A stretch of 55,216 nucleotides of DNA. Source: a virus (Duplodnaviria; Caudoviricetes). Position numbers and translations under genes: made by a program. Every line of letters starts with the position of its first letter. Position 1 is the stretch's first letter. Positions 2,471 through 21,174 of the stretch are shown here, in pieces. The notes under the pieces were generated by a model that did not search any database, was not told the DNA's origin, and saw nothing but the letters and a program-made list of their open reading frames with translations. The stretch is from IMG/VR virus record IMGVR_UViG_3300038549_000019, positions 1 through 55,216 of that record, one strand, 5' to 3'.

Positions 2471-2478
2471 TTCTGCTC

Positions 2479-2835: not shown

Positions 2836-2838
2836 ACG

Positions 2839-3321: not shown

Positions 3322-3323
3322 TT

Positions 3324-3620: not shown

Positions 3621-3684
3621 GTAATCCTCCTATGGTTGCAAGATAGGTGGGAGGATTCCGCCCCCCACCTAATCTTACGGCATA

Positions 3685-4329
3685 TTAAGCAATGCGGTAG
3701 GTCACAAACGTGTTCGCCGCTGTCTTCCGCGTCCGGAACATGGCGCTATTCCCGTACACCCCACCGGTCGAGGCATGGGCGGACTGGACGATCGGGTTAC
3801 CGACAATGGTATGATCGGTTCCAGCCGTCACCGTGATGGTATCGGCAGCGGCAGCACTGAGATTAATGAGGCTCCAGTCGAATGCCTCGTTAATCTGGAG
3901 ACCGGCACCGGCATCCGACAAAGTGCCAGTGGGGAGCGTGTAGGCCTGAGTAGCACCCGCTGCATGGGTCCCGGTGACGATTTTGGTCAGCAGTTCCGCG
4001 ATTGTCAGGGTTGCAGCCGTGGTTTCTGCGGTCGGAGCACCCTGCACAAGTGTCCCGGCGGCAACATCAGCCGATGGGACAGTGCCGATGTCATACGTAG
4101 CACCACCGGCACCCGCCTCAACCCGGATCTCAGTCGCGGCGGAGAACGCGGTTGACACGTATTCGGTTCCGGCGGTTGTCTCGGCAACAAAAACCCAGGC
4201 CTCTGGGTAATTAGTGGTCGCGACCTTCTTGTATAGCTTGCACGGGGTCACCGAGAAAATGGCGACTTTGGACGAGGCGGGAACGGTAGCCGTGGCTGTT
4301 CCGTCGCGGAAGATGTATTGCTTGGCCAT
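3685..4329 (-). CDS. Putative capsid decoration / minor structural protein
   Basis: 214 aa, Ala/Thr-rich, immediately downstream of coat gene. Confidence 0.55.
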   Translation of the reverse strand: MAKQYIFRDGTATATVPASSKVAIFSVTPCKLYKKVATTNYPEAWVFVAETTAGTEYVSTAFSAATEIRVEAGAGGATYDIGTVPSADVAAGTLVQGAPTAETTAATLTIAELLTKIVTGTHAAGATQAYTLPTGTLSDAGAGLQINEAFDWSLINLSAAAADTITVTAGTDHTIVGNPIVQSAHASTGGVYGNSAMFRTRKTAANTFVTYRIA

Positions 4330-4359
4330 TGTTATCTCTCCTTTCTATAAACAAGGGAA

Positions 4360-4385
4360 AGGCGGGCCGGGAATCCAGCCCGCCT
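4360..4385 (-). terminator. Hairpin after coat gene, probable intrinsic terminator
   Basis: aggcgggc-N10-gcccgcct followed on the minus strand by ttcccttgttt. Confidence 0.55.
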
Positions 4386-4396
4386 GGGTATCACAA

Positions 4397-5671: not shown

Positions 5672-5683
5672 TTCTTTTCTCCT

Positions 5684-6529
5684 TTAGGACTGCTTGTCTC
5701 TGATTTGTCGTTTGTAGGCTGTCACTTTGGTATAGTCTCCAGACCGGGCAGCCTCTTCCCGAAGTCTTTCGAGCGTTGAATCCACCGTGCCGGAAATATT
5801 TCGCCCGGTTGCCTGGGGCACCTTCTCGGGGGGTGGAATGGGGGTGCGTTTTGCCATTTTGATTTGCGCCTCAAGTTTTGCAGCCGCGAATGCAAATTTC
5901 ACAGGGTCAGTAATGCTAGCGAGTTCCTTAGCCTTGGCTGGAGACTTGCCCAGCGCGTAAACCATTTGGGCCGGGTTGGTGCACCCCTGGATGAGGATTC
6001 CCTGCTGGACCTGGCTCAGGGTGGTAAAGACTTCCGATTCAGCCTCTTCAAAGTCATCAACCTCTAAAGATGTCTTAGCCTTGCCGTAGTCTTCAACCCG
6101 GGCCTGCCACGCCCTAGCTTGCTCCTCTTCCTGAGCCTTAGCCTTAGCCTCAGCCTCGTCTTTCTTTCGCTTTGTTTCGTACCAGCGGGTAAGATCCTCC
6201 TCGTACCTTTCGGGGTCCCATTCGCAGCCCTCCAACGTGGGCTTGGGGCCGACGGCCACTTCCGGAGTCTTGGCCTGCTCGTACTCCCGGAGCCTTTCCT
6301 CCAGCTTTCGCTTTTCTTTCAGTGTCTCCCTGTGAGCTTTGCGTAGCTCCCGGACCCACTCAGGGGCTTTGTGCTCCTCTTCATGGGCAGCGGGATCCTC
6401 TCCAAACGTAACAATGACTGATTCCGGTTCCTCGGTTGGGGCAGGGGCTTCCCCACCCTCGGGCGTCTCACCCGTAAGAGGTTCCTGGATCTCGGCTTCT
6501 TGTGGCGTTTGTTCTTCGACTTGGCTCAT
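5684..6529 (-). CDS. Scaffolding protein
   Basis: Acidic coiled-coil protein between portal and coat; C-terminus A..SGDYTKVTAYKRQ resembles P22 gp8 end. Confidence 0.8.
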   Translation of the reverse strand: MSQVEEQTPQEAEIQEPLTGETPEGGEAPAPTEEPESVIVTFGEDPAAHEEEHKAPEWVRELRKAHRETLKEKRKLEERLREYEQAKTPEVAVGPKPTLEGCEWDPERYEEDLTRWYETKRKKDEAEAKAKAQEEEQARAWQARVEDYGKAKTSLEVDDFEEAESEVFTTLSQVQQGILIQGCTNPAQMVYALGKSPAKAKELASITDPVKFAFAAAKLEAQIKMAKRTPIPPPEKVPQATGRNISGTVDSTLERLREEAARSGDYTKVTAYKRQIRDKQS

Positions 6530-6539
6530 GATGCGCCTT

Positions 6540-8654: not shown

Positions 8655-8676
8655 AGTACCCCCATATGATTATAGG

Positions 8677-10005
8677 TTATCTCCACCTGCTAGCAACAGG
8701 CAATGGTATAAATTCCTGTTTGGCTGGTTTGGGATTAACGATGCCGCCGAATAGCTCTGTCAATACCCATATCCAGGCGTCGGCCCTATTAGGTGATTGT
8801 GTCCCAGTGTATCCTATGGTTGACATCGCGGTAAGCTCGTCCTCAAGTTCTCGGAACTCTCCAGCGTGGCGTATTTTGCCTTGCTCATACAGCGGGGCAA
8901 ACGGTTCCGCTCGAACGGCCTTCCCGCGTGTTGCGGTAACTGCCCGGTATGGCGTCCTGGGCCTAGCCGTCTGAATGACTTGTTGGACCATGGCCCCGCC
9001 GTAGTTGGTCTCACCAACCACCACATCCGCCCTATGGCGATCATACGCGGTCGCTACAACCCGGCTCCACGTAGAGGGCCCGGCCTTGACTGTGCAGTCC
9101 TCAAGCAGGTATGCGTTTCCGTCCGTCCCTAGGCCGCCAACAACGATACCGATGGCATCGTGCTCCGATCCGTCCCCGTCCCCCGCCCCTGATGGGTCAA
9201 CACCGATCACAACCCGCACTAGGTCAGGAAGTGGTTTATCGAGCCAACGCCACTTATCGATATCCTCATCATGGAATAGCGCGTTGGGGGTCGCATCGGC
9301 AAACTCGCCAGCCAGAAACCGTTTTTGCAGACGCGGGCTCAATCCCTTGAGGGTCTCCAGGTAGGCTCCATCGATGTTATCTCTGTTGTCATCCGGGTTA
9401 ATTTTGAACCATGCATACTCTTCTGGGTCTCGCACCGGGAATTTTGTTTCAGGATCCCGTTTTTCAATGAACATGCGATACGTCCAGTGGTTTTTGGAGG
9501 GCGGGTTCTCGTCATAATACATGCGTGGCTTGAGCGTGGTTGGCTCACATCCCTCCATCCGTTGGTCCACTAGCTGCGCCAGACGCGTTACTGCGATATC
9601 TCGGGACCCCTTGGGTATCTGTGACGCCTCATTGAGATAGATGGTGGCGAATTCCATCCCTAGGATCTTCTCGGTGCGCTCTTTATCATCGAGCCCTCCG
9701 AACCATATTTGTGAACCATTCTCAAAGTCTGCGTGCCAGTCTGTTTTGTCCAACTTGTATTTAACACCTTGGAAGCATAGCCGCATCACCTTCGGGAAGG
9801 TGTCCAACACAACCGATGCCTTCACGGCATTAAACCTGTATCGCAGGATAGCGTGACGGCTGTTCGGGGCTTTGAGCGCCCGCATACATACGGCTCTCAC
9901 CAATAGGAAGGTCTTGCCACTGCGGCTTCCACCCACCAGCATAATATGCGTTGCGGGCCCGGCCAGAACCCGCATTGCCTCCTGCTGTTTTTCGGTGAGC
10001 TTCAC
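8677..10005 (-). CDS. terL: Terminase large subunit
   Basis: Walker A GGSRSGKT, Walker B IYLNEA, nuclease GVDPS and PNRADA. Confidence 0.93.
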   Translation of the reverse strand: MKLTEKQQEAMRVLAGPATHIMLVGGSRSGKTFLLVRAVCMRALKAPNSRHAILRYRFNAVKASVVLDTFPKVMRLCFQGVKYKLDKTDWHADFENGSQIWFGGLDDKERTEKILGMEFATIYLNEASQIPKGSRDIAVTRLAQLVDQRMEGCEPTTLKPRMYYDENPPSKNHWTYRMFIEKRDPETKFPVRDPEEYAWFKINPDDNRDNIDGAYLETLKGLSPRLQKRFLAGEFADATPNALFHDEDIDKWRWLDKPLPDLVRVVIGVDPSGAGDGDGSEHDAIGIVVGGLGTDGNAYLLEDCTVKAGPSTWSRVVATAYDRHRADVVVGETNYGGAMVQQVIQTARPRTPYRAVTATRGKAVRAEPFAPLYEQGKIRHAGEFRELEDELTAMSTIGYTGTQSPNRADAWIWVLTELFGGIVNPKPAKQEFIPLPVASRWR

Positions 10006-10331
10006 AGCTCTTGGTCCTCTTTTGTGGCTTTAATCACAACTGGCCCGCCGCCGTCTCCAACGTGCTCGGTGCGCTGAAGCTTGGGGATGTGGTATTCAAT
10101 GACGTCCATCATGCACCGCCACGCCCTTTCGGCTCCCTGCTCCTCTGCGATTTGGTCCAGCCAATCCTGCAATCGCGGGATGTTCCCTTCAACAAGGGCA
10201 GCTATTGCTTCTCTGGCGTTTTGCGTTACCTTATTAGGTATCCCAGCTCGTGACCCTCCACCGCGTCTTTCTCCTGGCTTAGATCCACGGGACGGCACTT
10301 TTTTACGCTCTCCCTGCCGTTTATCGTCCAT
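10002..10331 (-). CDS. terS: Terminase small subunit
   Basis: 109 aa directly upstream of terL; G.PNK and PKLQRTEHVGDGGGP motifs. Confidence 0.75.
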   Translation of the reverse strand: MDDKRQGERKKVPSRGSKPGERRGGGSRAGIPNKVTQNAREAIAALVEGNIPRLQDWLDQIAEEQGAERAWRCMMDVIEYHIPKLQRTEHVGDGGGPVVIKATKEDQEL

Positions 10332-10373
10332 TTTGGCCCCTCCTTCACCACTAACTCACGTTTTTCTTCATTC

Positions 10374-10517
10374 CTAGCACAACTGGCCACGCGGAGGCCA
10401 GAGATCACGGCTAGGCTCTTTGTCCCTACCGGGCAGTTTCGGTGCCTCGGCAGTCGGTGTTTCCTTCACCTCTTCCGGGATGGGTTGCTGGTCCTTCTTT
10501 TCTTCCTCAGGGTTCAT
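10374..10517 (-). CDS. Small acidic hypothetical protein (47 aa, not in ORF track)
   Basis: Hand translation MNPEEEKKDQQ...; RBS GAGGAG; frame kept in copy 2. Confidence 0.4.
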   Translation of the reverse strand: MNPEEEKKDQQPIPEEVKETPTAEAPKLPGRDKEPSRDLWPPRGQLC

Positions 10518-10519
10518 GT

Positions 10520-10741
10520 CTACTCCTCATGTTTAAACACCTTCGCTTCCAGGTGCTTCACCCTAGTATCGATCGTTTCGACTTTCTGTTCAAGGACGGC
10601 GGAGCGGGTTTGCCCGGCATAGACCGCCGTGCGCATCTCTCTAACCTCATAAGCCGCCCACCCCAGCACGGCCCCCAACAACCCCTTGGCAATCCATTCC
10701 CAAGTCACCGATCCGCCGCGTTGTCTTTGCCCACCAACCAT
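10520..10741 (-). CDS. Small membrane / coiled-coil protein, possibly lysis-related
   Basis: Hydrophobic segment WIAKGLLGAVLGWAAY; TAATG coupling to upstream gene. Confidence 0.5.
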   Translation of the reverse strand: MVGGQRQRGGSVTWEWIAKGLLGAVLGWAAYEVREMRTAVYAGQTRSAVLEQKVETIDTRVKHLEAKVFKHEE

Positions 10742-11301
10742 TAACGCCTCCCTGCGCAAAAACCGAGGGCCAGCCCCCCGGCAACCCCTTGCAATCGCCC
10801 CCTCCAAAGGGCACCGCGATTTGCTGCCTTTTGCGCCTCCAGCGCTAATTCTAGGCTGACAACCTGTCTCCTACGGGCGTCAGCCTCATCCCTGTATGCA
10901 TCTCCCCTGATAGTCAGGGCCTCGATTACCTTGTCGCGGTCCTGAATGGCCACGTCTTGTGCTGCAATTAGCGCATCCTTAGCAACGTCCAGACTGGCCA
11001 GATCTCCAGCGGGTAGAGGCTCGGGACTCGGTAGGGTGACACCAGGTGTAGCGGGGCGTAGTTTGGCCACCACGGCGCGTAGCCGTGCAACCTCCAGGTC
11101 AGCCCTCCCCACAGCGGCCTTTGCCTCCTGTGCAGCCGTCTCCTGTGCCAGTGCCCTGGACCGCTCCGCATCAGCCCTCCTAGCCTCGTTTTTTGCGGTT
11201 TGTTCGTGTTGGGTTGCGACTGCCTGTATTTTTTTGCCGTGATACGCAAATGCCCCTGCCACAATGGCAAGGGCAATTACCGCCACGATGGGCCATCTCA
11301 T
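10741..11301 (-). CDS. Rz-like inner-membrane spanin
   Basis: N-terminal TM helix plus long Ala-rich coiled coil, downstream of endolysin and holin. Confidence 0.6.
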   Translation of the reverse strand: MRWPIVAVIALAIVAGAFAYHGKKIQAVATQHEQTAKNEARRADAERSRALAQETAAQEAKAAVGRADLEVARLRAVVAKLRPATPGVTLPSPEPLPAGDLASLDVAKDALIAAQDVAIQDRDKVIEALTIRGDAYRDEADARRRQVVSLELALEAQKAANRGALWRGRLQGVAGGLALGFCAGRR

Positions 11302-12353
11302 GCTGTCACCTCGAATAGTGCAGGCTGGTAGCCGCTCGTATGGTTCTGACAATGTGGGCTAAACCAAATGCGCTCTCTCCCCGCATTTGTTCGCCCAGCG
11401 CCGGTCCCCTGTGTGCCATACCCGCCTTGCGCTTTCCACGCAACCTTTACCCACCCGTGATCCTCTAATGTGTGGTGCCCTTCGCCTTCGTAGCCACACA
11501 ACGCTATTCGCAGGTTGGTTTTTCCCCCATTTGCCACACACCACTCTGTGACGTCGCTTGCTACAGTAGTTGACTCCTGCCTATAAACCATTTCCCTGTC
11601 ATCGACGCCGTAAGGTGGATCAAGAAAAACAGCTGTCAACCCCATTGATTCTGTTTGGCTACGGCCTAGGACCCTGGACCAGTCCCCACAGCATACCCGG
11701 ACATCCCGCAGCCGTTCTGCCAATTCTTTAAATACATCCAGAATGTCCCCATCCCTATCTGCGTCTTGCTTCTTGTTTATGCCAAGCCCAGGACCGCCCA
11801 AATATGGTATTTTCCGGTTAATACCCATCCCAGAATTGCCGATGTGCGGCATTTGCCGGTTAATACCAGCCTCTACACTCCCTATTTGTTTGGTTAACGC
11901 TAATACACCCTCATCATCTGGGACGGCAACCCACGGCCCCTTGCCACTGGCAAAGCCGGATCCAATCCAGCAGCACATGCCATAGACCCAATACCCTGCC
12001 ATCCGAGCATCGTAGTAGTCAGGGTCAGCCATCATCCGGGATTGATGCCTTTGTAGTCTGGTAACAATCCAAATATGCCTAGCGTGTAAATCAGCCTCGT
12101 TTACAGGGCACGATGCCCATCTAGCTACCTCGTCCGGGGCGTCCCGCGTCGATCGCCAGAAATTGGACACCAGTGCATCCAGATCGTTAATCGTTTCTGT
12201 TTGCGGCGGATGGGGGCGGGCCAATAGTACAGCCCCGGACCCAAAAAAGGGCTCCACATAGTTTTGACAATCGCCTAGCCGATCCCAAACCAGACTAGCG
12301 ACCGGCGATTTCCCGCCGAACCATGGGAATGGTGCCTTGAGACCATCAGTCAT
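11298..12353 (-). CDS. DNA adenine methyltransferase (Dam/D12-like)
   Basis: PFPWFGGKS, YVEPFFGSGAV, INDLD and catalytic DPPY; true start probably MTDGLK. Confidence 0.88.
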   Translation of the reverse strand: MTDGLKAPFPWFGGKSPVASLVWDRLGDCQNYVEPFFGSGAVLLARPHPPQTETINDLDALVSNFWRSTRDAPDEVARWASCPVNEADLHARHIWIVTRLQRHQSRMMADPDYYDARMAGYWVYGMCCWIGSGFASGKGPWVAVPDDEGVLALTKQIGSVEAGINRQMPHIGNSGMGINRKIPYLGGPGLGINKKQDADRDGDILDVFKELAERLRDVRVCCGDWSRVLGRSQTESMGLTAVFLDPPYGVDDREMVYRQESTTVASDVTEWCVANGGKTNLRIALCGYEGEGHHTLEDHGWVKVAWKAQGGYGTQGTGAGRTNAGRERIWFSPHCQNHTSGYQPALFEVTA

Positions 12354-12603
12354 TCTTTGCCCCGCTGTCTGGCTTGCGGTAGGCAACCCCGGCCAACCCG
12401 GCAACAATACCACCAAGACCCAGCAGGGCGGATACTGCCCCAGTGCCAAGATCGCCATGCCGGTAGGCCCACCATGCGCAGGCGATTGCAAGCCCACCGA
12501 ACCCAAGACACAATGCAACCGATGCTAAGGCGACTACGTGGCGCTTGGTTGAGAGCGTCCCCCCGGGCCCGCTCAACACCTCCTTGATCCACTCCTTAAT
12601 CAC
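12346..12603 (-). CDS. Putative holin
   Basis: Two TM segments, adjacent to endolysin. Confidence 0.6.
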   Translation of the reverse strand: MIKEWIKEVLSGPGGTLSTKRHVVALASVALCLGFGGLAIACAWWAYRHGDLGTGAVSALLGLGGIVAGLAGVAYRKPDSGAKND

Positions 12604-12669
12604 TGATGCACCGGCCAATATGGCCAATCGTACGGGTTATCATCGTATGGATCGCCGGGGTCATCTTTC

Positions 12670-13125
12670 CTACCCATGGTGGACCTCTTCGTAATGTGGT
12701 GTCCCTGTTTTGTCGTAGACCGCGATATAGGCCTTATGCCTAGGCTCCTTGCCGATCCGTGGTGCCTGAACGTGGATCCAGATTGTATCGCCTTTGATCT
12801 CAAGAATGAGCTTATCAAAGACGGGCCCACGATTGATAATTTCATTGAATGCACCCAGGCAGTCCATACCCTTGGGCACAAAATCACAGGCGCGGCCCTC
12901 AAGATGGGCGCTTTGTGGGTGCCCCCCCACCTTGCGGTTGACAGCCTTAGACCTGTAGGCAGAGTTGACCACTAGGGGGACACCCAGCAGCCCCCGGATT
13001 GGCTCAAGAATCGAGTCAGCAAGGATGACCAGATTAGTCCCGGCCTCCATATCTGGGTCATTGCCCAATCCAGTGCTGGTCTTGGTCAACTCGTCCAGTG
13101 TGAAATGGGGTGATAGGTGCTGCAT
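12670..13125 (-). CDS. Endolysin, peptidase M15 family
   Basis: LSPHFTLDEL, SAYRS..VN..VGG, SAHLEGRACD, WIHV zinc-peptidase motifs. Confidence 0.88.
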   Translation of the reverse strand: MQHLSPHFTLDELTKTSTGLGNDPDMEAGTNLVILADSILEPIRGLLGVPLVVNSAYRSKAVNRKVGGHPQSAHLEGRACDFVPKGMDCLGAFNEIINRGPVFDKLILEIKGDTIWIHVQAPRIGKEPRHKAYIAVYDKTGTPHYEEVHHG

Positions 13126-13156
13126 TGTGTCCTCACTCTCCAGGATATACTTAGAT

Positions 13157-13561
13157 TTAACATTCGCAAGTGTGGTCTATCCACACGATGCCGAGATTTT
13201 GTGCAGCCCACACTTCAACTTGTGTTACATACTGCTGAAACTCTGATACAGTCAGTGATGACGTGCTTTGTGCGGTTGTTCCGCCGCACGGGAGGTCTAC
13301 AACGCCCAAAAATCGGCGCTTCAGGAACTCGTGCCAGATTTCGGCTGTGTATTGCCGTCCCTCGATCCAGGCATCCTCCTCTAGCTGATGCAGTAATCTC
13401 CAATAATATTTGTTTTGCGCCCTTGACCGTGTGGATTTCTCCGGCTTGATCTCGATTGCAAGTGGATTGCCTTCTAGCGCATATTTTTCCCATGCATCCT
13501 TGCAGTAGGATACCAACGCTTCCAGGTTCCGCTCGGATCGTAGGTAGTATGTCCTCATCAT
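13157..13561 (-). CDS. ninB: NinB/Orf family recombination mediator
   Basis: RSRAQNKYYW and STSSLTVSEFQQYVTQVEVWAA motifs. Confidence 0.8.
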   Translation of the reverse strand: MMRTYYLRSERNLEALVSYCKDAWEKYALEGNPLAIEIKPEKSTRSRAQNKYYWRLLHQLEEDAWIEGRQYTAEIWHEFLKRRFLGVVDLPCGGTTAQSTSSLTVSEFQQYVTQVEVWAAQNLGIVWIDHTCEC

Positions 13562-13761
13562 GGCTCTAGCCCGTTGTCCCGGAATAGCGCGATTAGGGCC
13601 CTAGCCTCGTCCCAGGTAACGTATCCTGTCCCCCGGCAAACCCGCTTGGCACTGCGCTCCGGGATGCCGAGTCGGGCCATCTCTCGATACAGATTGCCAG
13701 CCCCGCGCAAAACACACGCCAAAGCCAGCCACGGCTCAGGCAGATTAGTTGGTCTCCCCAT
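13558..13761 (-). CDS. Small HTH-like protein
   Basis: RBS GGAGG; similar to the 15801-16010 product. Confidence 0.55.
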   Translation of the reverse strand: MGRPTNLPEPWLALACVLRGAGNLYREMARLGIPERSAKRVCRGTGYVTWDEARALIALFRDNGLEP

Positions 13762-13787
13762 GTCCCCTCCTGTCATCATTATAGGCC

Positions 13788-13823
13788 ACTGTCTACCCAA
13801 TGCAACCCCATCCGTAGTTTTTT
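13788..13823 (-). promoter_or_regulatory. Sigma70-like promoter
   Basis: A-tract, TTGCAT-N16-TATAAT upstream of 13761 start. Confidence 0.6.
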
Positions 13824-13901
13824 GGGTGGGTCTATTGCTGATTGCGAACCGCTAGTATTGTTTTCATTGGCGTTGTGGCTGGTCTTAGTACGTGTTCCCC
13901 A

Positions 13902-13953
13902 GAATTGGGCGTACCGTCATCCCATGGACGGTACGTCCAATTCAAAGTTAGGC
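13902..13953 (+). other. Left boundary site of cassette array: hairpin plus GTTAGGC, no R'' box
   Basis: gaattgggcgtaccgtc/gacggtacgtccaattc stem followed by GTTAGGC at 13947-13953. Confidence 0.6.
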
Positions 13954-13955
13954 GC

Positions 13956-14129
13956 TCAACGCAGCACGCACCAAAGCGCCCACCCAAGGCCGAAGCCAAT
14001 TCCCACTCGAAGCAGTTCCTTCCTTGCGAGGTTCTTTCCATCCTGAAACCCCCGCACGTAGGCCTGTTCCTCTGGTGTTTTGGCCAGATGGGCCTGTAAG
14101 CCGTCAAGCAGTCGTTCAAAATCAGGCAT
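13956..14129 (-). CDS. Cassette A gene 2, 57 aa with C-terminal hydrophobic segment (not in ORF track)
   Basis: Hand translation MPDFERLLDG...WALWCVLR; stop 2 bp from GTTAGGC. Confidence 0.6.
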   Translation of the reverse strand: MPDFERLLDGLQAHLAKTPEEQAYVRGFQDGKNLARKELLRVGIGFGLGWALWCVLR

Positions 14130-14289
14130 TCGCCACCTTCTTTCTCGTCACCTCAAAGATTTCGGTTACCCCGTCCTGGGCGTAGACCGCTGCGTAATGC
14201 CGCGCCTCGCGCAGGGCGTCTTCCCTGGGGCCAACGGCGCTGGCAACTGGTTCCCCGTCACACCTCACTTCAAATTCAACTTCTTCCAT
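14122..14289 (-). CDS. Cassette A gene 1, hypothetical
   Basis: MEEVEFEVRC; RBS AGGAG. Confidence 0.6.
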   Translation of the reverse strand: MEEVEFEVRCDGEPVASAVGPREDALREARHYAAVYAQDGVTEIFEVTRKKVANA

Positions 14290-14319
14290 GGTTTCTCCTG
14301 TGGTTCCAACCAACAACGC

Positions 14320-14403
14320 GCCTAACCCTCACATCAACAACGCTCACTTCGTTCGCTCGGACCCAGCCCTTGCGGGCTGGTCCGGTTATGTCGGGCGTTA
14401 GGC
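14320..14403 (+). repeat. attC site 1 (84 bp, branched)
   Basis: GCCTAAC-N5-CATCAAC...GTTATG-N6-GTTAGGC. Confidence 0.88.
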
Positions 14404-14691
14404 AGCTAGACGTGCCTGCACGCAGAACCTGAAAGATGTCGCTCGCCACAGCCGTCGATACCACCCTGGCCACTGCGCTACAGCAGTCCCTAGGGCTGGC
14501 AGAAAGCTCCCGTAAAAACCCATGCGGGCTGGTCCACTGTATTCGGATGGTGCCCAAATACCCCAAGAAGGGCCTTGCCAATTCCCGCCAAGGTGGCCTA
14601 GATGGATGGCCGTGTAGCCCACTTGGATGCGGAGCAGAGTCCCTTTGTTTTGGCCCGAATGGGTGTTCCTGTAGATGGTGCAGATTTTCAC
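14398..14691 (-). CDS. Cassette B hypothetical protein
   Basis: GTG start with AGGAG RBS; TAA lies inside R' of attC1. Confidence 0.5.
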   Translation of the reverse strand: MKICTIYRNTHSGQNKGTLLRIQVGYTAIHLGHLGGNWQGPSWGIWAPSEYSGPARMGFYGSFLPALGTAVAQWPGWYRRLWRATSFRFCVQARLAA

Positions 14692-14720
14692 GCTTTTTCT
14701 CCTTTCGTTTCGTTTACGCG

Positions 14721-14800
14721 GCCTAACCGGTCATTCAACACCGGCCTTCGGCCTCGGACCCACGGCTCTGCCGTGGGCCGGTTAATTCGGTTCGTTAGAC
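14721..14800 (+). repeat. attC site 2 (80 bp, branched)
   Basis: GCCTAAC-N5-ATTCAAC...GTTAAT-N7-GTTAGAC. Confidence 0.88.
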
Positions 14801-15403
14801 CGCCTCGGCCCATGCTTGGGCAGAACGGGCGATCCCCAGCAGCAGATCCCGAAACTCGGGCGGCGTCCGCTGCCTGTGTTTACTGCACATGTTCGCAATC
14901 ACCCCGCAACGTCGGGCGCTTTCGTACCCGCGTTCCGCTAGGCGTTTCTCTGGCAACCGCTGTTCTGCTGGTCCCCAGATCAGTTCCGGGGGCTTCGGAC
15001 CCACCGCCAACAGCCAGGTCTTTTTCCGGGCCTTGTGCCCGTAGTGCCCCTGCTCGACTTCGCAGGTCCATTCGGCGTAGCCGATCCGCAGCCATCCGGC
15101 CTTGGGCGGCTTGGGAATCCCGAAGGCATCCCAGGCTTTCGAGTGCGCGGGGTGCTCCAGCACTCCCCCGAACTGGCGCAGGCTGGCCAGCGCGGCGGCA
15201 AAGCATCCGTCATCATCGCCCGTCTGGTGGACCTTCTTCGTCATGCTGCCTTCCGAGAAACGCCCCCACCTCTGGCAGGGCGGGTGCGCCACAACGGGGT
15301 GCGGACCCTCGTAGCGCCTGGCGTCCCGCCCGATGTCCCACGGGTCCACCTCGGGCAACCCGTAGTAGCAGCCATTTTTCTCGACATACAGCGCCGCGAT
15401 CAC
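14795..15403 (-). CDS. Cassette C: short C5-cytosine methyltransferase-like protein
   Basis: VVAHPPCQ (motif IV-like), VLEHP (VI-like), RKKTWL (VIII-like), RTPPEF. Confidence 0.6.
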   Translation of the reverse strand: MIAALYVEKNGCYYGLPEVDPWDIGRDARRYEGPHPVVAHPPCQRWGRFSEGSMTKKVHQTGDDDGCFAAALASLRQFGGVLEHPAHSKAWDAFGIPKPPKAGWLRIGYAEWTCEVEQGHYGHKARKKTWLLAVGPKPPELIWGPAEQRLPEKRLAERGYESARRCGVIANMCSKHRQRTPPEFRDLLLGIARSAQAWAEAV

Positions 15404-15425
15404 TTTTCCTCCTCTCCGGTCGTCG

Positions 15426-15507
15426 GTCTAACCATTCCATCAACAACGCCCCTTCGGGGCTCGGACCCAGCCCTTGCGGGCTGGTCCGGTTATGTCGGTC
15501 GTTAGGC
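15426..15507 (+). repeat. attC site 3 (82 bp, branched)
   Basis: GTCTAAC-N5-CATCAAC...GTTATG-N6-GTTAGGC; inner stem same as attC1. Confidence 0.88.
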
Positions 15508-15699
15508 GACACCATTCTGTTTCAGCCATCGATACAGTTCGCCCTTGATGTGGTCCGTCAGCTTCGTCCCAAAAGGACAGGTCTTTGCCCACTCATTCAC
15601 CAAGCCTCCGCTGTGGCAAATGAACTCTTCCAGCTTGTTGATTCTGGCTTGTAGATGCGCCTCTCTTACTGTGCATACCTCGTGATTGCGGTCCTTCAT
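15502..15699 (-). CDS. Cassette D hypothetical protein
   Basis: MKDRNHE with GGAGGA RBS; TAA inside R' of attC3. Confidence 0.55.
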   Translation of the reverse strand: MKDRNHEVCTVREAHLQARINKLEEFICHSGGLVNEWAKTCPFGTKLTDHIKGELYRWLKQNGVA

Positions 15700-15747
15700 G
15701 ATTCGATTCCTCCACACTTTTTATTCTGTGTATGATTCGCGCCAGTC

Positions 15748-15806
15748 GCCTAACCGGGCGCTCAACCGGACCCCTGGCGGGGCCGGTTAGCTCGGAAGCG
15801 TTAGGT
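15748..15806 (+). repeat. attC site 4 (59 bp)
   Basis: GCCTAAC-N5-GCTCAACC-GGAC...GGTTAGC-N8-GTTAGGT. Confidence 0.92.
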
Positions 15807-16010
15807 GGCTTCGGGCGGCTCCACGCCAGCCTCCCGGAATACCTGCTCAATCAGGCGCCTGGCCGGGCCTCTGGGCTGGCGCGTCCCGTGAGCCCACTGG
15901 TGGACGGTGCGGGGGGTAGTCCCCAGAGCCTCAGCTACCTGGGCCACACCCCCCAGGATCTCCGCCAGGCGGTCCCAGGGGGCGGGGAGTGTTGTGGGGC
16001 GCGGCATCAA
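15801..16010 (-). CDS. Cassette E gene 2: Cro/XRE-like HTH protein
   Basis: VAQVAEALGTTPRTVHQWAHGTRQP helix-turn-helix. Confidence 0.75.
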   Translation of the reverse strand: MMPRPTTLPAPWDRLAEILGGVAQVAEALGTTPRTVHQWAHGTRQPRGPARRLIEQVFREAGVEPPEAT

Positions 16011-16279
16011 ATCCCCAGCAAAATGCGAGCGGCTCCGAGAGCCTTTTCCTCAGAATCGCCGGGGACAAAACCATCCTCGGCGGAGGGGCAGCACTCGCGC
16101 AGGGCGATCACGAAGTTTTCCGCTGCTTCTGTGTAGGCCCCGAAATCGTCAAGGCTGGAGATAGCTTCGAGGGCCTTCTTGATCTTCCACTCGAAAACTC
16201 GGGTGTCGTCGAATTTCCCAGACAAAACGACGATTCGTGCTCGGATCGCGTTCAGGATTTCAATCTTGACATGGCTCAT
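16007..16279 (-). CDS. Cassette E gene 1, hypothetical
   Basis: MSHVKIEIL with AAGGAG RBS; stop overlaps HTH start. Confidence 0.6.
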   Translation of the reverse strand: MSHVKIEILNAIRARIVVLSGKFDDTRVFEWKIKKALEAISSLDDFGAYTEAAENFVIALRECCPSAEDGFVPGDSEEKALGAARILLGI

Positions 16280-16313
16280 CTCGGCTCCTTGTGTCCTGGG
16301 CTCCTTGCCCGAC
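16274..16313 (-). repeat. 40-bp leader/RBS element, identical inverted copy at 23506-23545
   Basis: gtcgggcaaggagcccaggacacaaggagccgagatgagc. Confidence 0.9.
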
Positions 16314-16377
16314 AACACAATATCGGCTCAATGTTCCGAATGCGCAAGGGGGGGCAAAAGATTTTTTTAGGCCCGCC

Positions 16378-16436
16378 ACCTAACCACTCGCTTAACCGGA
16401 CCCCTGTCGGGGCCGGTTAGCTCGGAACCGTTAGGC
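16378..16436 (+). repeat. attC site 5 (59 bp)
   Basis: ACCTAAC-N5-GCTTAACC-GGAC...GGTTAGC-N8-GTTAGGC. Confidence 0.92.
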
Positions 16437-16682
16437 CTCTGGCTCTTGGTCCCATCCCGAGTCCTCGCGCATCCTCTTCCCGCACCATCGGCAACAGGTC
16501 CAGTGGTGCCCCAGCCCATTCCCCTCCCACAGGCCGTTATCCTCGTGGGGACACTGCTCGATCAGTGCCTTTTCGGCAGGGCGGTAGATCGTGTCGTCGT
16601 ACTCCCGCATTCTGCGGCTCGCCTCGCGGGTGCGCTCCCACAGCAAATTCTTCAGCGCGGCTTTTATCTCGGGTCCGTTCAT
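16431..16682 (-). CDS. Cassette F hypothetical protein with Cys/His motif
   Basis: MNGPEIK, AGGAGG RBS; CPH...CRWCG; TAA inside R' of attC5. Confidence 0.6.
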   Translation of the reverse strand: MNGPEIKAALKNLLWERTREASRRMREYDDTIYRPAEKALIEQCPHEDNGLWEGNGLGHHWTCCRWCGKRMREDSGWDQEPEA

Positions 16683-16714
16683 CTTTCCTCCTATGCCCGC
16701 CCCGTCTCTCATCG

Positions 16715-16773
16715 GCCTAACCCGTCGCTCAACCGGACCCCTGGCGGGGCCGGTTAGCTCGGGAGCGTTAGGC
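16715..16773 (+). repeat. attC site 6 (59 bp)
   Basis: GCCTAAC-N5-GCTCAACC-GGAC...GGTTAGC-N8-GTTAGGC. Confidence 0.92.
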
Positions 16774-16774
16774 G

Positions 16775-17113
16775 CTACTTGAACAGTGCTTCAAAGATTT
16801 TGCCGCGAGAGTAGCTGGATTCCAGGCGCTTCTTCACTTCGTCCGTCATGCCCCTAGCGAGTTCTTCTGTGATCTGGTTTGCGGTGATGATGGCAAGTGA
16901 AACAAGCCCTTCTTTGGATTCGACAAGTTGAGCTTTAATCACCGGCACAATTTCAGTAGCCATGAACGCGGTAACTTCATCCTGGATTAGCTTTGAAACA
17001 ATAGGGCTCATCTCCCAGTGGGCTTGTCGCGTAGCTTCGGCGGTCAATCCAGCAATAATGGAAGGTTTAGCCTCGTCCAAAATTGAAGCAATTTGTTCTT
17101 GCGAAAGCTGCAT
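16775..17113 (-). CDS. Cassette G hypothetical helical protein
   Basis: MQLSQEQ with GGGAG RBS; TAG 1 bp from attC6. Confidence 0.65.
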   Translation of the reverse strand: MQLSQEQIASILDEAKPSIIAGLTAEATRQAHWEMSPIVSKLIQDEVTAFMATEIVPVIKAQLVESKEGLVSLAIITANQITEELARGMTDEVKKRLESSYSRGKIFEALFK

Positions 17114-17127
17114 TGCGTTTCTCCCGC

Positions 17128-17227
17128 GCCTAACTCGGCGCTCAACCGGACCCAACCGCCACGGGCATCCGGCTTTATTCGTGTTTGGACCAATGGCGGT
17201 TGGTCCGGTTAGCTTGGGCCGTTAGGC
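17128..17227 (+). repeat. attC site 7 (100 bp)
   Basis: GCCTAAC-N5-GCTCAACC-GGACCCAACCGCCA...TGGCGGTTGGTCC-GGTTAGC-N7-GTTAGGC. Confidence 0.9.
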
Positions 17228-17228
17228 C

Positions 17229-17492
17229 TCAACGCCAGTTAACATGCATGCCTTCGGTTTCTCTGTGGTCCCACCGGTGCCCACACATCTCACACACCTT
17301 TTCAGACAGAGCAATATACCAAAATGCATCACCTTTGGTCACTAGTCGGTGCTGTGGTCGCAATAAAATGTAAGTGTTGAAACTCTCGCAATCTGGACAA
17401 CGCAATGTGTTTAACAAACCGCCTAACCCATCGTTCAACCCGGACGTTACCTCCATGGACTGCTGTTCTCCTTCGTTATTCGTGATTTCCAT
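17229..17492 (-). CDS. Cassette H zinc-ribbon-like protein, starting inside attC8
   Basis: CPDC...CEMCGH; GGAGGGAG RBS and ATG lie in the attC8 loop. Confidence 0.55.
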   Translation of the reverse strand: MEITNNEGEQQSMEVTSGLNDGLGGLLNTLRCPDCESFNTYILLRPQHRLVTKGDAFWYIALSEKVCEMCGHRWDHRETEGMHVNWR

Positions 17493-17545
17493 ACTCCCTC
17501 CAAAGTTTCGGCGTCGGTAACGCCGGTTAAGTCCAGTCGCTAGGC
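17421..17545 (+). repeat. attC site 8 (125 bp, non-canonical R' GCTAGGC)
   Basis: GCCTAAC-N5-GTTCAACC-CGGACGTTACC...GGTAACGCC-GGTTAAG-N7-GCTAGGC. Confidence 0.8.
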
Positions 17546-17836
17546 GCGATTCAAAGCGTTGCGCGCTATTTCGTGGGCATTTACGATATCCTTCGAATAT
17601 TGCACGGCCACCAATTCTTCCCGGTATCGTTCAGACCTGTCCTGCGTATCGTTCAACTGTTCGATAATTTCTAATAGTTGATCTTCTACTTGCCGTCCCC
17701 TTGTCGCCTCTATTCGGCTGAGCAGCCATTCCACTCTCTCGTCTAGCCCGGCGCGCTTCCACTCCGTGTCATCAAATAGGCCGTCATGCAGCATCCACTT
17801 GATTCGGTTGAGTTGGTCCTCTGTGTTGCCGTCCAT
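17540..17836 (-). CDS. Hypothetical protein
   Basis: MDGNTEDQ downstream of promoter; TAG lies in degenerate R' of attC8. Confidence 0.6.
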   Translation of the reverse strand: MDGNTEDQLNRIKWMLHDGLFDDTEWKRAGLDERVEWLLSRIEATRGRQVEDQLLEIIEQLNDTQDRSERYREELVAVQYSKDIVNAHEIARNALNRA

Positions 17837-17854
17837 CTCTCTCACCTCGATACC

Positions 17855-17909
17855 AGTATGGGCCCTGGGTGGCCCGTGCGCAAGGGGGGGGACGTGCAAA
17901 CTTTTTTTG
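17855..17909 (-). promoter_or_regulatory. Sigma70-like promoter pointing into the cassette array
   Basis: A-tract, C-tract, TTGCGC-N17-CATACT. Confidence 0.6.
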
Positions 17910-17912
17910 TTA

Positions 17913-18449
17913 TTAAGTGTTGTTACCACTGCCATAGTTGTCATCCCACCCGCCCGAATATGTTTCTTTATCCTGGGCGCACTCGATGCATTTATTTTTG
18001 ATTTCGCGCTGCAATCTATTATTAAGACCAACTTCGTACGATAGAGCGCTCATGAGCCCCTCGTTTTGTTTTTCTAGCCAGTCAATATGCCCATTGGCTA
18101 TTTCCAGCTCTTTTTTTAATTTGTTTACAATATTTTGCTGCATACAGCCTCCAATCAGTGTTTGCACCTGTAACCATAGCTCCGCCTCTGTCCCGTGCGC
18201 CGCCTCCCAAGTTTTCGGCCCAGCGTGATAGGCGACTCCCCATCCCCCTTGCCGGTGGTGGGCCGGGCACAGCGGGATCGAGTGGAGGTGGCAGGACCGT
18301 TTGCCCGCTCCAATATGCCGCCCTGTCTCAGGGTGGCGTTTGAGGTGGTGCACCTCCGCAGGCGTCCCAGGATACCCATTATTCAGGCAAACTATGCACC
18401 CAAGCGATACAATAGCGTCAAGGTATTCTTTCTCCTCATTTGTAGCCAC
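17913..18449 (-). CDS. Ref/DUF968-like HNH-type nuclease with in-frame C-terminal extension
   Basis: GCIVC..PAEVHH..IPLCPAHHR..HAG..WEAAHGTEAEL. Confidence 0.7.
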   Translation of the reverse strand: MATNEEKEYLDAIVSLGCIVCLNNGYPGTPAEVHHLKRHPETGRHIGAGKRSCHLHSIPLCPAHHRQGGWGVAYHAGPKTWEAAHGTEAELWLQVQTLIGGCMQQNIVNKLKKELEIANGHIDWLEKQNEGLMSALSYEVGLNNRLQREIKNKCIECAQDKETYSGGWDDNYGSGNNT

Positions 18450-18876
18450 TGTCTCGCCTCGCCTTCATTCGTGCCTTTGCGCGTCTGTTTGCTGCGATAC
18501 ATTTTTTGCATCGTCTATATCCAGGCTCTGGATCATGCGCTCCACAAGTGCTACATTTGCCCTCCTGTCGCCTGCGTTCTCGGTATTTTTTTGTTGCCTC
18601 GTCGTGGTACTCCTGGCAGTACCCACATTTTTGCCGCCCTGGCATGGCCTCCGCTTTACCGCATGATATACAAATTCCCAGCGCTGCCAAGGCCTTCCTG
18701 CGCACTAATACACGGGGCGGGGTCCCCTTCCTGTTGTCTCGGCACTTTTGGCACGATCCGAGCCCTCCGTCCGCAGGCGCACCACAATAATAGCAAAGGC
18801 CAGCCGCTCGTCTTTCCCAATAAATTGTCTTTTTTTGCTTCCTGTTTTTCCGTTGCTCCAGGATTTCCGCCCTCAC
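18436..18876 (-). CDS. Basic protein with three CxxC...CxxC repeats
   Basis: GLCYYCG..CQKC, GICISCG..CGYC, GKCSTCG..CKKC. Confidence 0.65.
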   Translation of the reverse strand: MRAEILEQRKNRKQKKTIYWERRAAGLCYYCGAPADGGLGSCQKCRDNRKGTPPRVLVRRKALAALGICISCGKAEAMPGRQKCGYCQEYHDEATKKYRERRRQEGKCSTCGAHDPEPGYRRCKKCIAANRRAKARMKARRDSGYK

Positions 18877-20225
18877 AATTGCCTCCCCTGCCGTGGAGCT
18901 TGTTGACTGGTATATGACGTTTCCCTAGTAACAACCTCATATCGTTGATATTGTCCGTTGAACGCCATGGGAATTTGCCCCAGGGGCCCCGCACGGTGCT
19001 TTGCGATGAGCAGTTCGGCTGTATTATCAACCTCTCCCGTATCGGGCTTGTTTTGCCGGTGCAAAAACAACACACAATCAGCATCCTGCTCGATACAACC
19101 AGACCCACGCAAATCCGCTAATCTAGGTGCCGTGCTGGATCTTCCTTCAACCTCCCGGTTCAGCTGACTCAGGAGTAATACTGGGACGTTTTTGTCTTTG
19201 GCACAGATTTTGAGAGCCCTGGTGATGTCCCCCAACGCTTGATCTTCCCTGCGTTTTGCGTCCGGTTGTGATATGAGTTGGAGATAATCTACTACCACCA
19301 GCGCAGGCAATTCACCGGCCTGCTGGATAGCCCTGTCAACCTGTGATACAATTTGTGATACATTGATAGCAGCCCTGTCATTTATTAATAGCTGTTTCTT
19401 CCGCAGGTCAGCCACTGCCCTGTGTACAAGCCCACGCTGGTAATCCCTAGCCGTGCCGGTGGTTAGCACGCTCATCGGGACAGACGCTGTATTGGCCACT
19501 AGCCTCGTCATGATCTCCTCGTCTGGCATCTCCAGGGAAAAAACCAGTACTGGCCCTGTGGCACATGCAGCCAATGCCCAGTTCAGAGCTAGGGCCGTCT
19601 TGCCTATCCCGGGCCTAGCGGCCAGCACATACAGCCTACCAGGGCACAACCCCCCCAGCACTGCGTCTACCCGAGCCATACCCGTTGGAGCACCCCCCGT
19701 CCAGGCATGGCCGTCTAACCGGCCTAGGACGCGTTCTAAGGCCTCCGAACACTGTTTCAGGTGGTTACCCTGCCCGCCAACCGCCAGACGCGCCAGAGAG
19801 GCCCCTAGGGCCTCTGCAAGGGCATCCGGTGTATCCTGGGCAAATGCGTCCCGTACGAGCTGGGTCCCCAGCCGGATCAAATCCCGGCGTTTGCGGTCCC
19901 GCTGGAGGATCGCTACCAGCGCCCCAGGCCGCGCCACGTCTAGCCCGGATAGGATCTCGGTCAGCCCGGACCAGTCGCCAACACGCCCGAGATCACCGTG
20001 GCTCCGCAGCTGGTCGGCTAGGGCGGCGAGGCTCAGCTCCTGCCCGGCGGCCTGGAGGGCGGCGGCAGCCCGGTAGACCGCCCGGTGCTGCGGCACCAAA
20101 AAATCCTCCGGGACCAGCACGGGCAGCCATTCCGCCGCATCCGCGTCTGCCCCTGGTGCGCACAGGGTGGTCAGCAGGTCGCGTTCCACGCGGGGGTCAT
20201 GGGGGGGGGCCTGATTTGGGGTCAC
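18873..20225 (-). CDS. dnaB: Replicative DNA helicase
   Basis: AARPGIGKT, FSLEM, VVDYLQL, LSQLNR, DLRGSGCIEQDAD, KHRAGP. Confidence 0.95.
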   Translation of the reverse strand: MTPNQAPPHDPRVERDLLTTLCAPGADADAAEWLPVLVPEDFLVPQHRAVYRAAAALQAAGQELSLAALADQLRSHGDLGRVGDWSGLTEILSGLDVARPGALVAILQRDRKRRDLIRLGTQLVRDAFAQDTPDALAEALGASLARLAVGGQGNHLKQCSEALERVLGRLDGHAWTGGAPTGMARVDAVLGGLCPGRLYVLAARPGIGKTALALNWALAACATGPVLVFSLEMPDEEIMTRLVANTASVPMSVLTTGTARDYQRGLVHRAVADLRKKQLLINDRAAINVSQIVSQVDRAIQQAGELPALVVVDYLQLISQPDAKRREDQALGDITRALKICAKDKNVPVLLLSQLNREVEGRSSTAPRLADLRGSGCIEQDADCVLFLHRQNKPDTGEVDNTAELLIAKHRAGPLGQIPMAFNGQYQRYEVVTRETSYTSQQAPRQGRQL

Positions 20226-21121
20226 ACTGTCACCTCCTCGAGTGGTAGCGGTTGTGGGTTATTGGTGCGCCTGTAAATTTCAGCTTTTACAGCCCGGGCC
20301 CACGGTGGTGTTTTGCCATTTTTCCCAGGCCCGAACCAGAACTGGATTGCATTTGGGTAGTCGCCTGGGTCCTGGAGCCAATCCAGCGCGGCAGCCTCCA
20401 GCAGGTCCAGGGTAACCTCCGGGTGGGCATCGAGCAAATCCTCGACTGCGCCAACGGCGTCGACGAGATCGTGGCGGATTGGCCTGCTGTCCCTGGACGT
20501 GGGCCACTGGGCTAGCAGGCGTTGCACTAGCCCCACCACCTCGGGCCGGTAGCCCTGGATACGCTCTGCCTGCCGTTTGCGCTTGGGTTTTGGCTCCGGC
20601 GCGGCAGCCGTTCCCCCCTGGGGGGTAGGGGGGGGTACTTCTGTTACTGATACTGTTACTGATACTGGTTCCGAAAGGGTTTCAGAAGGGTTCGCCAAGG
20701 GTTCCGAAAGGGTTTCATCTTTGGGCACCTCAGCCCCGAAGTGATGACCGCAGACCCTTAGAAAATCTAGCTTCCACTGGCATAGTTCAGGTATCTGCTC
20801 CACGATCTTCCGGGCGCACTTGCACTGATTGGGATTTTCGAGGGGGTTCCACTCCAGATGCTTGCGAACCCACACCCATTTAGAGGTTCCGCAACGGTTT
20901 GCAAAACCCTTCTGGAACAGTTCCGCAAACCCTTCTGAAACCCTTTCTGAACCCCATCCGAGGTCTTCCGCGACATAGGCATCCGGTAGCCTGAACACGC
21001 CTACAAGGGTCCCGTGTTGGCAGCTCAGGAGATAACACGCCAGGATGCGCCCCGTGTCGCTAAGGGTGGATGTGGTCTCACTGGACCAGAACGAGCTGTA
21101 GACCTTTCCGTAGTCGCGCAT
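20222..21121 (-). CDS. Phage replication initiator (lambda O-analogous)
   Basis: MRDYGKV..FW N-terminus; upstream of and coupled to dnaB; internal repeats. Confidence 0.7.
   Translation of the reverse strand: MRDYGKVYSSFWSSETTSTLSDTGRILACYLLSCQHGTLVGVFRLPDAYVAEDLGWGSERVSEGFAELFQKGFANRCGTSKWVWVRKHLEWNPLENPNQCKCARKIVEQIPELCQWKLDFLRVCGHHFGAEVPKDETLSEPLANPSETLSEPVSVTVSVTEVPPPTPQGGTAAAPEPKPKRKRQAERIQGYRPEVVGLVQRLLAQWPTSRDSRPIRHDLVDAVGAVEDLLDAHPEVTLDLLEAAALDWLQDPGDYPNAIQFWFGPGKNGKTPPWARAVKAEIYRRTNNPQPLPLEEVTV
20641..20953. repeat. Iteron-like repeats, candidate replication origin
   Basis: ggttccgaaagggtttca at 20667 and 20700; inverted copy at 20927-20953; ctgttactgata x2. Confidence 0.65.
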
Positions 21122-21174
21122 CTCACGCCCTCCGCTTCCACGCCTCGTCAATCCAGGAGGTTGTAATTGACAGC

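Follow-up and report, generated by a model that had tools for sequence, protein, structure and literature searches.

The DNA analysed here, called the window throughout, is the whole of the IMG/VR virus record IMGVR_UViG_3300038549_000019 (55,216 bases, rated 100% complete), and the system in question is an array of eight integron-type gene cassettes found at positions 13947-17545 (3.6 kb). Judged from its gene content, the record is a double-stranded DNA phage genome, given that a terminase, a DnaB helicase, a DnaD-like helicase loader, NinB and an endolysin are all present. About 1.56 copies of a genome of about 35.3 kb stand head to tail in the record, with bases 1-19906 recurring at 35305-55216, and for this reason the array is found a second time in identical form at 49257-52855 (+ strand, offset +35310). 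Eight attC sites are contained in 3.6 kb and no integrase is encoded in the replicon, which makes the array a cluster of attC sites lacking integron integrase (CALIN). It is not a complete integron, given that intI is missing and that the left boundary bears only weak likeness to the end of attI1 (AAAG/TT, where the slash marks the crossover). The predicted genes of this array are reversed relative to those of bacterial integron cassettes, a property on which the initial annotation of the locus was silent, as it was on the integrase-free phage context.

At its left end the array is bounded by a hairpin (13902-13946, + strand) with a 17-bp stem (13902-13918 paired with 13927-13943) and an 8-nt loop, followed by AAA. 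This hairpin stands directly before the first box and is not a canonical attC site, since it has neither an R'' box nor an extrahelical base. The first R'-type box, GTTAGGCGC (13947-13955, + strand), places the crossover G/TT between 13947 and 13948. Eight cassettes follow, coded on the minus strand, each with an attC site that reads on the plus strand. Cassette 1 (13948-14397) consists of two overlapping open reading frames (ORFs) at 13956-14129 (57 aa) and 14122-14292 (56 aa), together with the body of attC1 (14320-14403, 84 nt). Cassette 2 (14398-14794) has an ORF of 97 aa (14398-14691), with AAGGAG 7 nt before its GTG start and a TAA stop codon that is made by the box, and is followed by attC2 (14721-14800, 80 nt). 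Cassette 3 (14795-15501) codes for a protein of 202 aa (14795-15403) assigned to phrog_12600, with attC3 at 15426-15507 (82 nt), and these first three sites all have a pattern score of 0. In cassette 4 (15502-15800) an ORF of 71 aa (15502-15717) is found with attC4 (15748-15806, 59 nt). Cassette 5 (15801-16430) carries two overlapping ORFs, at 16007-16282/16318 and at 15801-16010, the latter coding for a helix-turn-helix (HTH) protein of 69 aa, as well as a promoter-like motif near 16354, and its site attC5 (16378-16436, 59 nt) has a T as the extra L'' base. Cassette 6 (16431-16767) has an ORF of 93 aa (16431-16712) and attC6 (16715-16773, 59 nt), and cassette 7 (16768-17221) an ORF at 16775-17113/17155 (112-126 aa) and attC7 (17128-17227, 100 nt). 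Cassette 8 (17222-17539) codes for a zinc-ribbon-like protein of 87 aa (17229-17492) whose start codon falls within the variable loop of attC8 (17421-17545, 125 nt), the last site of the array, which has a degenerate R' box, GCTAGGC. The finding of the initial annotation ended at 17427, and this eighth site carries the array on to 17545.

The architecture of the sites was evaluated with a strict attC pattern, in which RYYYAAC is followed by 5 nt, a 7-nt L'' box with one extra base, its 6-nt L' complement, 5-8 nt and GTTRRRY. Seven of the eight sites agree with this pattern without mismatch, all of them on the plus strand, and attC8 has a single mismatch in R'. As a control, the 35.3 kb genome was shuffled thirty times, and 4 matches in total were obtained. 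The spacers measure 5 nt on one side and 6-8 nt on the other and the sites are 59-125 nt long, so that both the unpaired spacer and the variable terminal structure of attC sites are present. The aadA1 attC site of plasmid R100, which stands next to intI1, shows the same layout on its coding strand, with the extra base in the 5' arm. When the bottom strand of aadA1 and the minus strand of the window were folded as DNA, single-base G and T bulges six pairs apart were obtained in both cases, and in both folds the bulges lie on the 3' arm, opposite the AAC triplet. Extrahelical bases in this position mark the bottom strand as the one that is recombined, and bottom strands are also described as enriched in purines and stabler in folding (Nivina et al. 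2016, PMC5027507). In the window, the minus strand folds into the stabler structure in six of the eight sites (mean 0.7 kcal/mol); the AT skew of the plus strand is negative in six sites and zero in two, and its GC skew is negative in five, zero in two and positive in one. These sequence features indicate that the plus strand is the attC top strand and that the crossover lies at the G/TT of the plus-strand boxes. The way of calling the strand was checked in 14 bacterial loci having both attC sites and intI, where 27 of 28 sites among the matches listed are canonical relative to intI. The Pirellulales contig L076 is the only bacterial locus, among these matches, with an attC site that is non-canonical relative to its intI.

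The initial annotation had described each R' box as the complement of the R'' box of the following site and had listed six such pairs. When perfect complementarity is counted outward from the conserved G/C of the boxes, all six are found where they had been placed, with 9, 9, 10, 10, 8 and 9 nt, and the two adjacent pairs that it had left out (attC1-attC2 and attC7-attC8) are complementary over the 7-nt core only. Along the whole array, R' matches the R'' box of the next site over 9, 7, 9, 10, 10, 8, 9 and 7 nt (sum 69; 8 of 8 at 7 nt or more), which are the end pairings of cassettes 1 to 8 in that order, whereas against the R'' box of its own site the values are 7, 5, 5, 6, 6, 7, 7 and 1 nt (sum 44; 3 of 8 at 7 nt or more). 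Only 20 of the 40,320 assignments of R' to R'' boxes reach a sum of 69 (mean 54, maximum 70), which corresponds to a p of about 5e-4, and the box variants GAC/GTC and GGT/ACC are displaced by exactly one site. R' pairs with the R'' of the next site because the two halves of an R box belong to one and the same cassette. Folding of the units as circles in silico agrees with this in part: six of the eight sites are stabler than in the integrated form, and in these six the true end partner ranks first or second of eight, but no gain is seen for cassettes 2 and 8, which are the ones with ends that match over the 7-nt core only. Summed over the eight sites, the folding energy is -193.6 kcal/mol for the circularised form versus -169.5 kcal/mol for the integrated one. 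The same register is seen in the control loci considered below, where, among the matches listed, the mean pairing with the next site versus the own site is 7.8 versus 5.9 nt in viral loci (53 pairs) and 8.4 versus 5.9 nt in bacterial ones (66 pairs).

The shifted pairing of R boxes is a textbook signature of cassettes, and its importance here is as proof that the units are true cassettes. Together with the canonical attC architecture, it upholds the view of the initial annotation that these elements are not mere terminators or hairpins resembling repetitive extragenic palindromic (REP) sequences. The further claim, that every unit had arrived as a circle, stands in so far as the units are genuine integron-type cassettes, but integration of each circle into this genome is not established, because the pairing signature travels with the cassette and would survive the transfer of an array en bloc between phages. 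Pairing alone also fits either direction of reading, and the assignment of attC bodies to genes required the extrahelical bases. Taking the minus strand as the attC top strand was considered and rejected on the extrahelical bases, the spacers, the skews and the folding energies, despite the fact that the pairing fits both strands. The unit coordinates proposed initially, which run between the G/TT crossovers of the GTTRRRY boxes of the plus strand, coincide with those predicted from attC structure, and these boundaries are right because the extrahelical bases place the recombined bottom strand on the minus strand.

In bacterial integrons the gene lies on the top strand of attC, so that recombination of the bottom strand puts it behind the Pc promoter (PMC5027507). 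In the window, all eight cassettes are coded on the minus strand, which is the attC bottom strand. The longest ORF is on the minus strand in all six intervals that could be scored, covering 54-106% of the interval, and ribosome-binding sites are readable ahead of the cassette ORFs. Five ORFs terminate at a TAA that is formed on the minus strand by the TTA of the box, and for this reason the crossover falls directly after their stop codon. The transcript of a cassette is thus ordered as attC, a short leader with the ribosome-binding site, ORF, stop codon and crossover point.

In three places the ribosome-binding site and the start codon of the downstream gene were seen inside the loop of the upstream attC site, namely in the window (17421-17545) and in the viral loci L036 (4604-4733) and L053 (about 3900-3990). 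Where attC sites host start codons the recombination site is partly coding, and the hairpin could affect translation.

The polarity of cassettes was then compared across databases. The attC pattern derived from the window matched 33 stretches in viral contigs and at least 120 stretches in bacterial and archaeal genomes, many of which have titles naming Beta- or Gammaproteobacteria, and a second, different attC pattern matched at least 119 further viral stretches. Polarity was assigned from the longest ORF that covers more than 60% of the interval between neighbouring sites on the same strand. In bacterial loci, among the matches listed, this ORF is on the top strand in 54 cases and on the bottom strand in 9, with 28 arrays mostly canonical and 2 mostly reversed. 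The opposite proportion was obtained for viral loci, with 9 ORFs on the top and 29 on the bottom strand in the first scan, 42 and 95 among the matches listed in the second, and 1 and 7 in loci fetched via the 202-aa protein. Clustering of the 170 viral loci at 90% identity gave 159 clusters, 76 of which have scored cassettes. After this de-duplication, still among the matches listed, 125 viral cassettes are reversed and 48 canonical, and 54 of the 76 clusters are mostly reversed, 12 mostly canonical and 10 tied. The viral ratio of 125:48 reversed to canonical differs from the bacterial ratio of 9:54 with a Fisher p of about 9e-16 for the matches listed. Reversed polarity is general among the viral contigs sampled.

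A homologue of IntI is encoded in 4 of the 170 viral loci among the matches listed. One of these, L284, is the most cassette-rich canonical viral array in that set (8 canonical to 1 reversed). No IntI was found in five array-bearing viral records that were searched. Reversed arrays stand beside genes for terminase and portal in L029, a RecT-like protein and a head or DNA-transfer protein in L036, and an exonuclease in L052, and the viral nature of these three loci and of L022 is based on PHROG matches. Within the bacterial set, a 2.3 kb contig binned to a Minisyncoccia metagenome-assembled genome (L142) has four reversed cassettes, and is possibly phage-derived or mis-binned.

The cargo looks phage-type, or phage-derived, from its sequence relatives. 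The 202-aa protein of cassette 3 matches phrog_12600 with an E value of 1e-62 and has 23 relatives in viral contigs. No Pfam family and no PDB relative were found for it; its neighbours in the Atlas are viral hypothetical clusters, and the nearest Pfam-bearing Atlas cluster, PF00145 (cytosine-5 DNA methylase, score 0.90), is to be taken as a lead only. Members of phrog_12600 occur as reversed, attC-flanked cassettes with 10-nt end pairing in L048, L052 and L053, and as reversed cassettes also in L022, L036, L046 and L047. In L035 and L037-L043 the same family is an ordinary, tightly packed phage gene in which our scanner found no attC site. One of these loci, L040, shows an apparent half attC (R box, spacer and L box) directly before the ribosome-binding site. 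That a single gene family is found in both forms, flanked by attC sites and as an ordinary gene, may say something about the origin of cassettes. Among the other cassettes, a homologue of the 56-aa ORF of cassette 1 (60% identity) forms a reversed cassette in the viral locus L029, and the ORF of cassette 4 has a 79% identical homologue in L038, where no attC site was detected by the scanner. A blastn search of the array against sequenced phages matched the 202-aa gene only, and weakly.

In cassette 5, the HTH protein gives weak matches to YdaS, Cro and HTH_3, all below the Pfam cut-offs, and the two ORFs (15801-16318, - strand), taken with the promoter-like motif, resemble a toxin-antitoxin or regulator pair. 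The promoter-like element is found on the minus strand at 16354, inside this cassette, and at 17891 and 22004, both in the phage backbone. Its layout is A7, 7-9 nt, C7-8, TTGCGCA, 17 nt and then a -10-like hexamer.

The array occupies the 3' end of the replication operon, which consists of the loader, DnaB, small genes and then the array, and sits just before the promoter of an operon coding for NinB, endolysin, methylase and terminase. The neighbourhood is transcribed leftward throughout, and the adjoining phage genes are all on the minus strand. By PHROG matches, these are a DnaD-like helicase loader (20222-21151) and a DnaB-like helicase (18873-20225) on one side, and NinB/Orf (13157-13561), an endolysin (12670-13125), a DNA methyltransferase (11298-12518) and the large terminase (8677-10005) on the other. 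Searches of the whole record with TIGR02249 for an integron integrase and with PF00589 for a tyrosine recombinase gave zero candidates, the latter search having matched 14 of 14 control genomes. The terminase of this phage was not found in five other array-bearing viral records. Iteron-like direct repeats (20641-20717 and 20885-20902; an 18-mer present three to four times and a 12-mer present twice) lie inside the loader gene and may be a replication origin, for which the lambdoid phages, with iteron-like repeats inside a replication gene as origin, offer a comparison. The sign of the GC skew changes near 21-23 kb, an observation that is confounded by transcription. The two genome copies of the record diverge by about 5% over the first 12 kb, with small indels near 9233-9373, and are identical over 12000-19906, array included. 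The layout of 1.56 copies is probably the result of two strains having been joined in assembly, rather than a true concatemer.

At the left end of the array, the perfect 17-bp hairpin and its AAA are followed by G/TTAGGCGC (13902-13955). The motif AATT-N-AAAG/TTAG beside a hairpin ends the arrays of the window (13902-13955), L036 (4976-5040) and L285 (8806-8870), and the attI1 site of R100 ends in ACAAAG/TT. This shared terminal junction may mark a place where first cassettes enter by preference, or a site akin to attI. At the right end, the R' box of attC8, G/CTAGGC, contains the stop codon of the preceding backbone gene. From their sequence, both ends look as expected after insertion of a first cassette into a site that is not attC, and no empty site was found. 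When the fetched bacterial and viral loci were searched for near-identical attC sites, only matches of 23-25 nt in the arms were obtained.

The region is present in one public run, labelled as a wetland metagenome and present as contigs only, which is possibly the source sample. Its contigs span the array at similar depth; the depth is about 23-40 over the greater part of 12000-19900 and falls to about 3 at 17280-17807 and to about 10 at 18072-18335. Among the contigs matched at 90% likeness, one of lower depth follows the window up to 13955, where the first box ends, and then continues with 30 letters at 16710, inside attC6. In a second contig 14743 is linked to 15482 through 39 foreign letters, with a side of 23 letters, and in both joints the short sides fall in repeated attC sequence.

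Taken together, it is probable that 13947-17545 is an eight-cassette CALIN in a phage of about 35 kb, with reversed ORFs, whose cassettes have been moved by a host integrase supplied in trans. We infer that the integron integrase comes from the host because the phage has no recombinase of its own; its current activity on the array, and the reason for the reversed polarity, are points that we likewise infer. The host would probably be a beta- or gammaproteobacterium, given the type of the attC sites. During infection, the host integrase would fold and recombine the minus strand of the attC sites, and cassettes would be inserted, excised and reordered at the end of the replication operon, where they would be transcribed with the phage genes. 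Recombination by IntI cannot flip a gene relative to its own attC site, and a reversed array therefore points to a distinct pool, so that the phage would be drawing on cassettes separate from those of its host.

Two reasons for the polarity, which do not exclude each other, can be suggested. The first is access to single-stranded DNA. With an origin in the loader gene, the replication fork would cross the array co-directionally with transcription, and the minus strand would be the lagging-strand template. It has been described that a bottom strand on the lagging-strand template favours the folding of attC and the excision of cassettes (Richard et al. 2024, PMC13108822). Were a canonical cassette to be expressed from this operon, its bottom strand would fall on the leading-strand template. 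The second reason is insulation: any bacterial cassette taken up into the phage array would lie antisense to transcription in the phage, and any phage cassette taken up at a bacterial attI would point towards Pc and likewise be antisense. A broader proposal, which we put forward tentatively and hold at somewhat less than even odds, is that phages keep a mirror-image cassette pool of their own, from which host integrases shuffle accessory genes quickly while the two pools stay transcriptionally insulated. In such a pool the attC bottom strand would be the coding strand; within a phage operon that is replicated and transcribed co-directionally, the recombinogenic strand would coincide with the non-template strand and probably with the lagging-strand template as well.

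Several points weigh against a mobile, host-driven array of reversed polarity. With regard to the comparison of loci, the sites were detected by our own pattern scanner and not by IntegronFinder, the polarity rule is a heuristic, the bacterial control is a single scan with one attC pattern limited to the matches listed, and IMG/VR contigs are predictions, some of which are possibly not viral. With regard to the array itself, its copies in the record are identical, and hence no turnover is visible. No recombination events were observed, the two weak joints in contigs of one run being all that was seen. Searches of viral contigs with NinB and DnaB confirmed no close relatives, which leaves no empty site or alternative array to compare. 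Finally, the degenerate R' box of attC8 and the left boundary that is not an attC site mean that the array could be a fossil.

This last possibility is the most serious alternative, and we consider it unlikely, although by no means negligible. It states that the cassettes were assembled elsewhere, acquired en bloc by mosaic recombination between phages and are now immobile, with the hairpins serving at most as intergenic structures. The lack of an integrase in the phage, the decayed R' of attC8 and the identity of the array in both copies are all in line with this, as are the cassette genes that occur as ordinary packed phage genes with no attC site found by the scanner (L035, L037-L043); the terminal junction common to the window, L036 and L285 could mark the transferred block. 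Nonetheless, seven of the eight sites are perfect by the strict pattern, including the extrahelical bases, which without selection would be expected to decay. The extended R-box pairing of 8-10 nt has likewise been kept in six of the eight cassettes, and one gene family is found in arrays that differ in the neighbouring genes and in the attC bodies, which also argues against a fossil block.

It is very improbable that the polarity is not reversed for the acting enzyme, that is, that a host integrase or an unrecognised phage factor recombines the top strand in a mirror-image system. The attC site of L076, non-canonical relative to its intI, speaks for this reading, but the minus strand is identified as the bottom one, exactly as in aadA1, by the extrahelical bases, the spacers of 5 versus 6-8 nt, the purine skew and the folding energy alike, and 27 of 28 sites, among the matches listed, are canonical in bacterial integrons that have the same attC type and an adjacent intI. 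Still harder to sustain is the idea that these are not integron sites at all, and that phage intergenic hairpins (terminators, RNase sites or REP-like elements) came to resemble attC by chance or convergence. The sites do lie between genes of one operon, and attC sites are considered weak terminators (Qi et al. 2023, PMC9892861). Against this stand seven sites with no mismatch, compared with 4 matches in 30 shuffles, a shifted register with p of about 5e-4, the presence of the same site type beside intI in bacteria, and the absence of a T run after any of the eight sites. An assembly chimera, in which a fragment of a bacterial integron was joined to a phage contig, is the least credible explanation of all, given that, despite the odd concatemer of 1.56 copies with two diverged versions of one part, the contig depth stays, apart from dips, at about 23-40 over the greater part of 12000-19900, the array has phage genes to its left and right that are transcribed in a single direction, the promoter-like motif of the backbone is found inside one cassette, the cargo is phage-type, and the same arrangement appears in many independent viral contigs.

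Integrons are commonly regarded as belonging to bacteria, and defences against phages are now known among the genes stored in their cassettes. If phages carry large arrays of functional attC cassettes with genes of the opposite polarity, host integrases would also act on phage genomes, where accessory genes, possibly anti-defence genes among them, would be exchanged as modules. This would be a general, so far undescribed phage use of the host integron machinery. Host cassettes, of which many are anti-phage defences, would stay silent in the phage, as would phage cassettes at a bacterial attI. Surveys that assign to each attC the same-strand ORF upstream of it would misassign the gene content of reversed arrays. 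The explanation of strand selectivity as a means to place genes behind Pc would need a second case, one without Pc, in which replication or transcription may set the polarity. Polarity would also offer a simple marker for separating phage-derived from bacterial cassettes in metagenomes.

Among known systems, the closest are the CALINs of phages. Seventeen of these are reported in sequenced phages, with at least two predicted sites each and without an integron integrase, and some phage attC sites recombine with IntI1 (Qi et al. 2023, PMC9892861). Those arrays and that of the window are both integrase-free phage attC arrays, and the cargo described by Qi et al. includes methyltransferases. The TJE1 array illustrated there as typical has three sites, whereas the window has eight of high quality. 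The sole site that our scanner found in TJE1 (244-293, + strand) lies on the strand of the annotated ORFs, which is the canonical polarity, unlike the reversed one of the window. No description of reversed polarity in phage-borne cassettes was found in the literature, the full CALIN list of Qi et al. lying outside this comparison.

The aadA1 cassette of R100 (NC_002134) has an attC site with the same layout, base for base, as those of the window, made of a 7-nt R'', a 5-nt spacer, L'' with an extra base, L', a 6-nt spacer and R'. In R100, however, the gene occupies the top strand of attC, downstream of intI1, attI1 and Pc, while the window has genes on the bottom strand and no intI, recognisable attI or Pc. 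The chromosomal integrons of Beta- and Gammaproteobacteria (L058-L177) share with the window the attC type and the shifted register of R boxes, but differ in that, among the matches listed, intI is canonical to 27 of 28 sites and ORFs are canonical to reversed in a ratio of 54:9.

In sedentary chromosomal integrons, the toxin-antitoxin cassettes that bear promoters are often reverse-oriented. Cassette 5 of the window likewise combines a promoter-like motif with an HTH protein, and a promoter of their own, which makes reading from Pc unnecessary, is described for some toxin-antitoxin cassettes of these integrons (Richard et al. 2024, PMC13108822). There, reversed cassettes are scattered exceptions in canonical arrays, whereas in the window the whole array is reversed, as are most viral arrays. 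CALINs in phages and the shifted pairing were already known, and the reversed polarity would be the new element.

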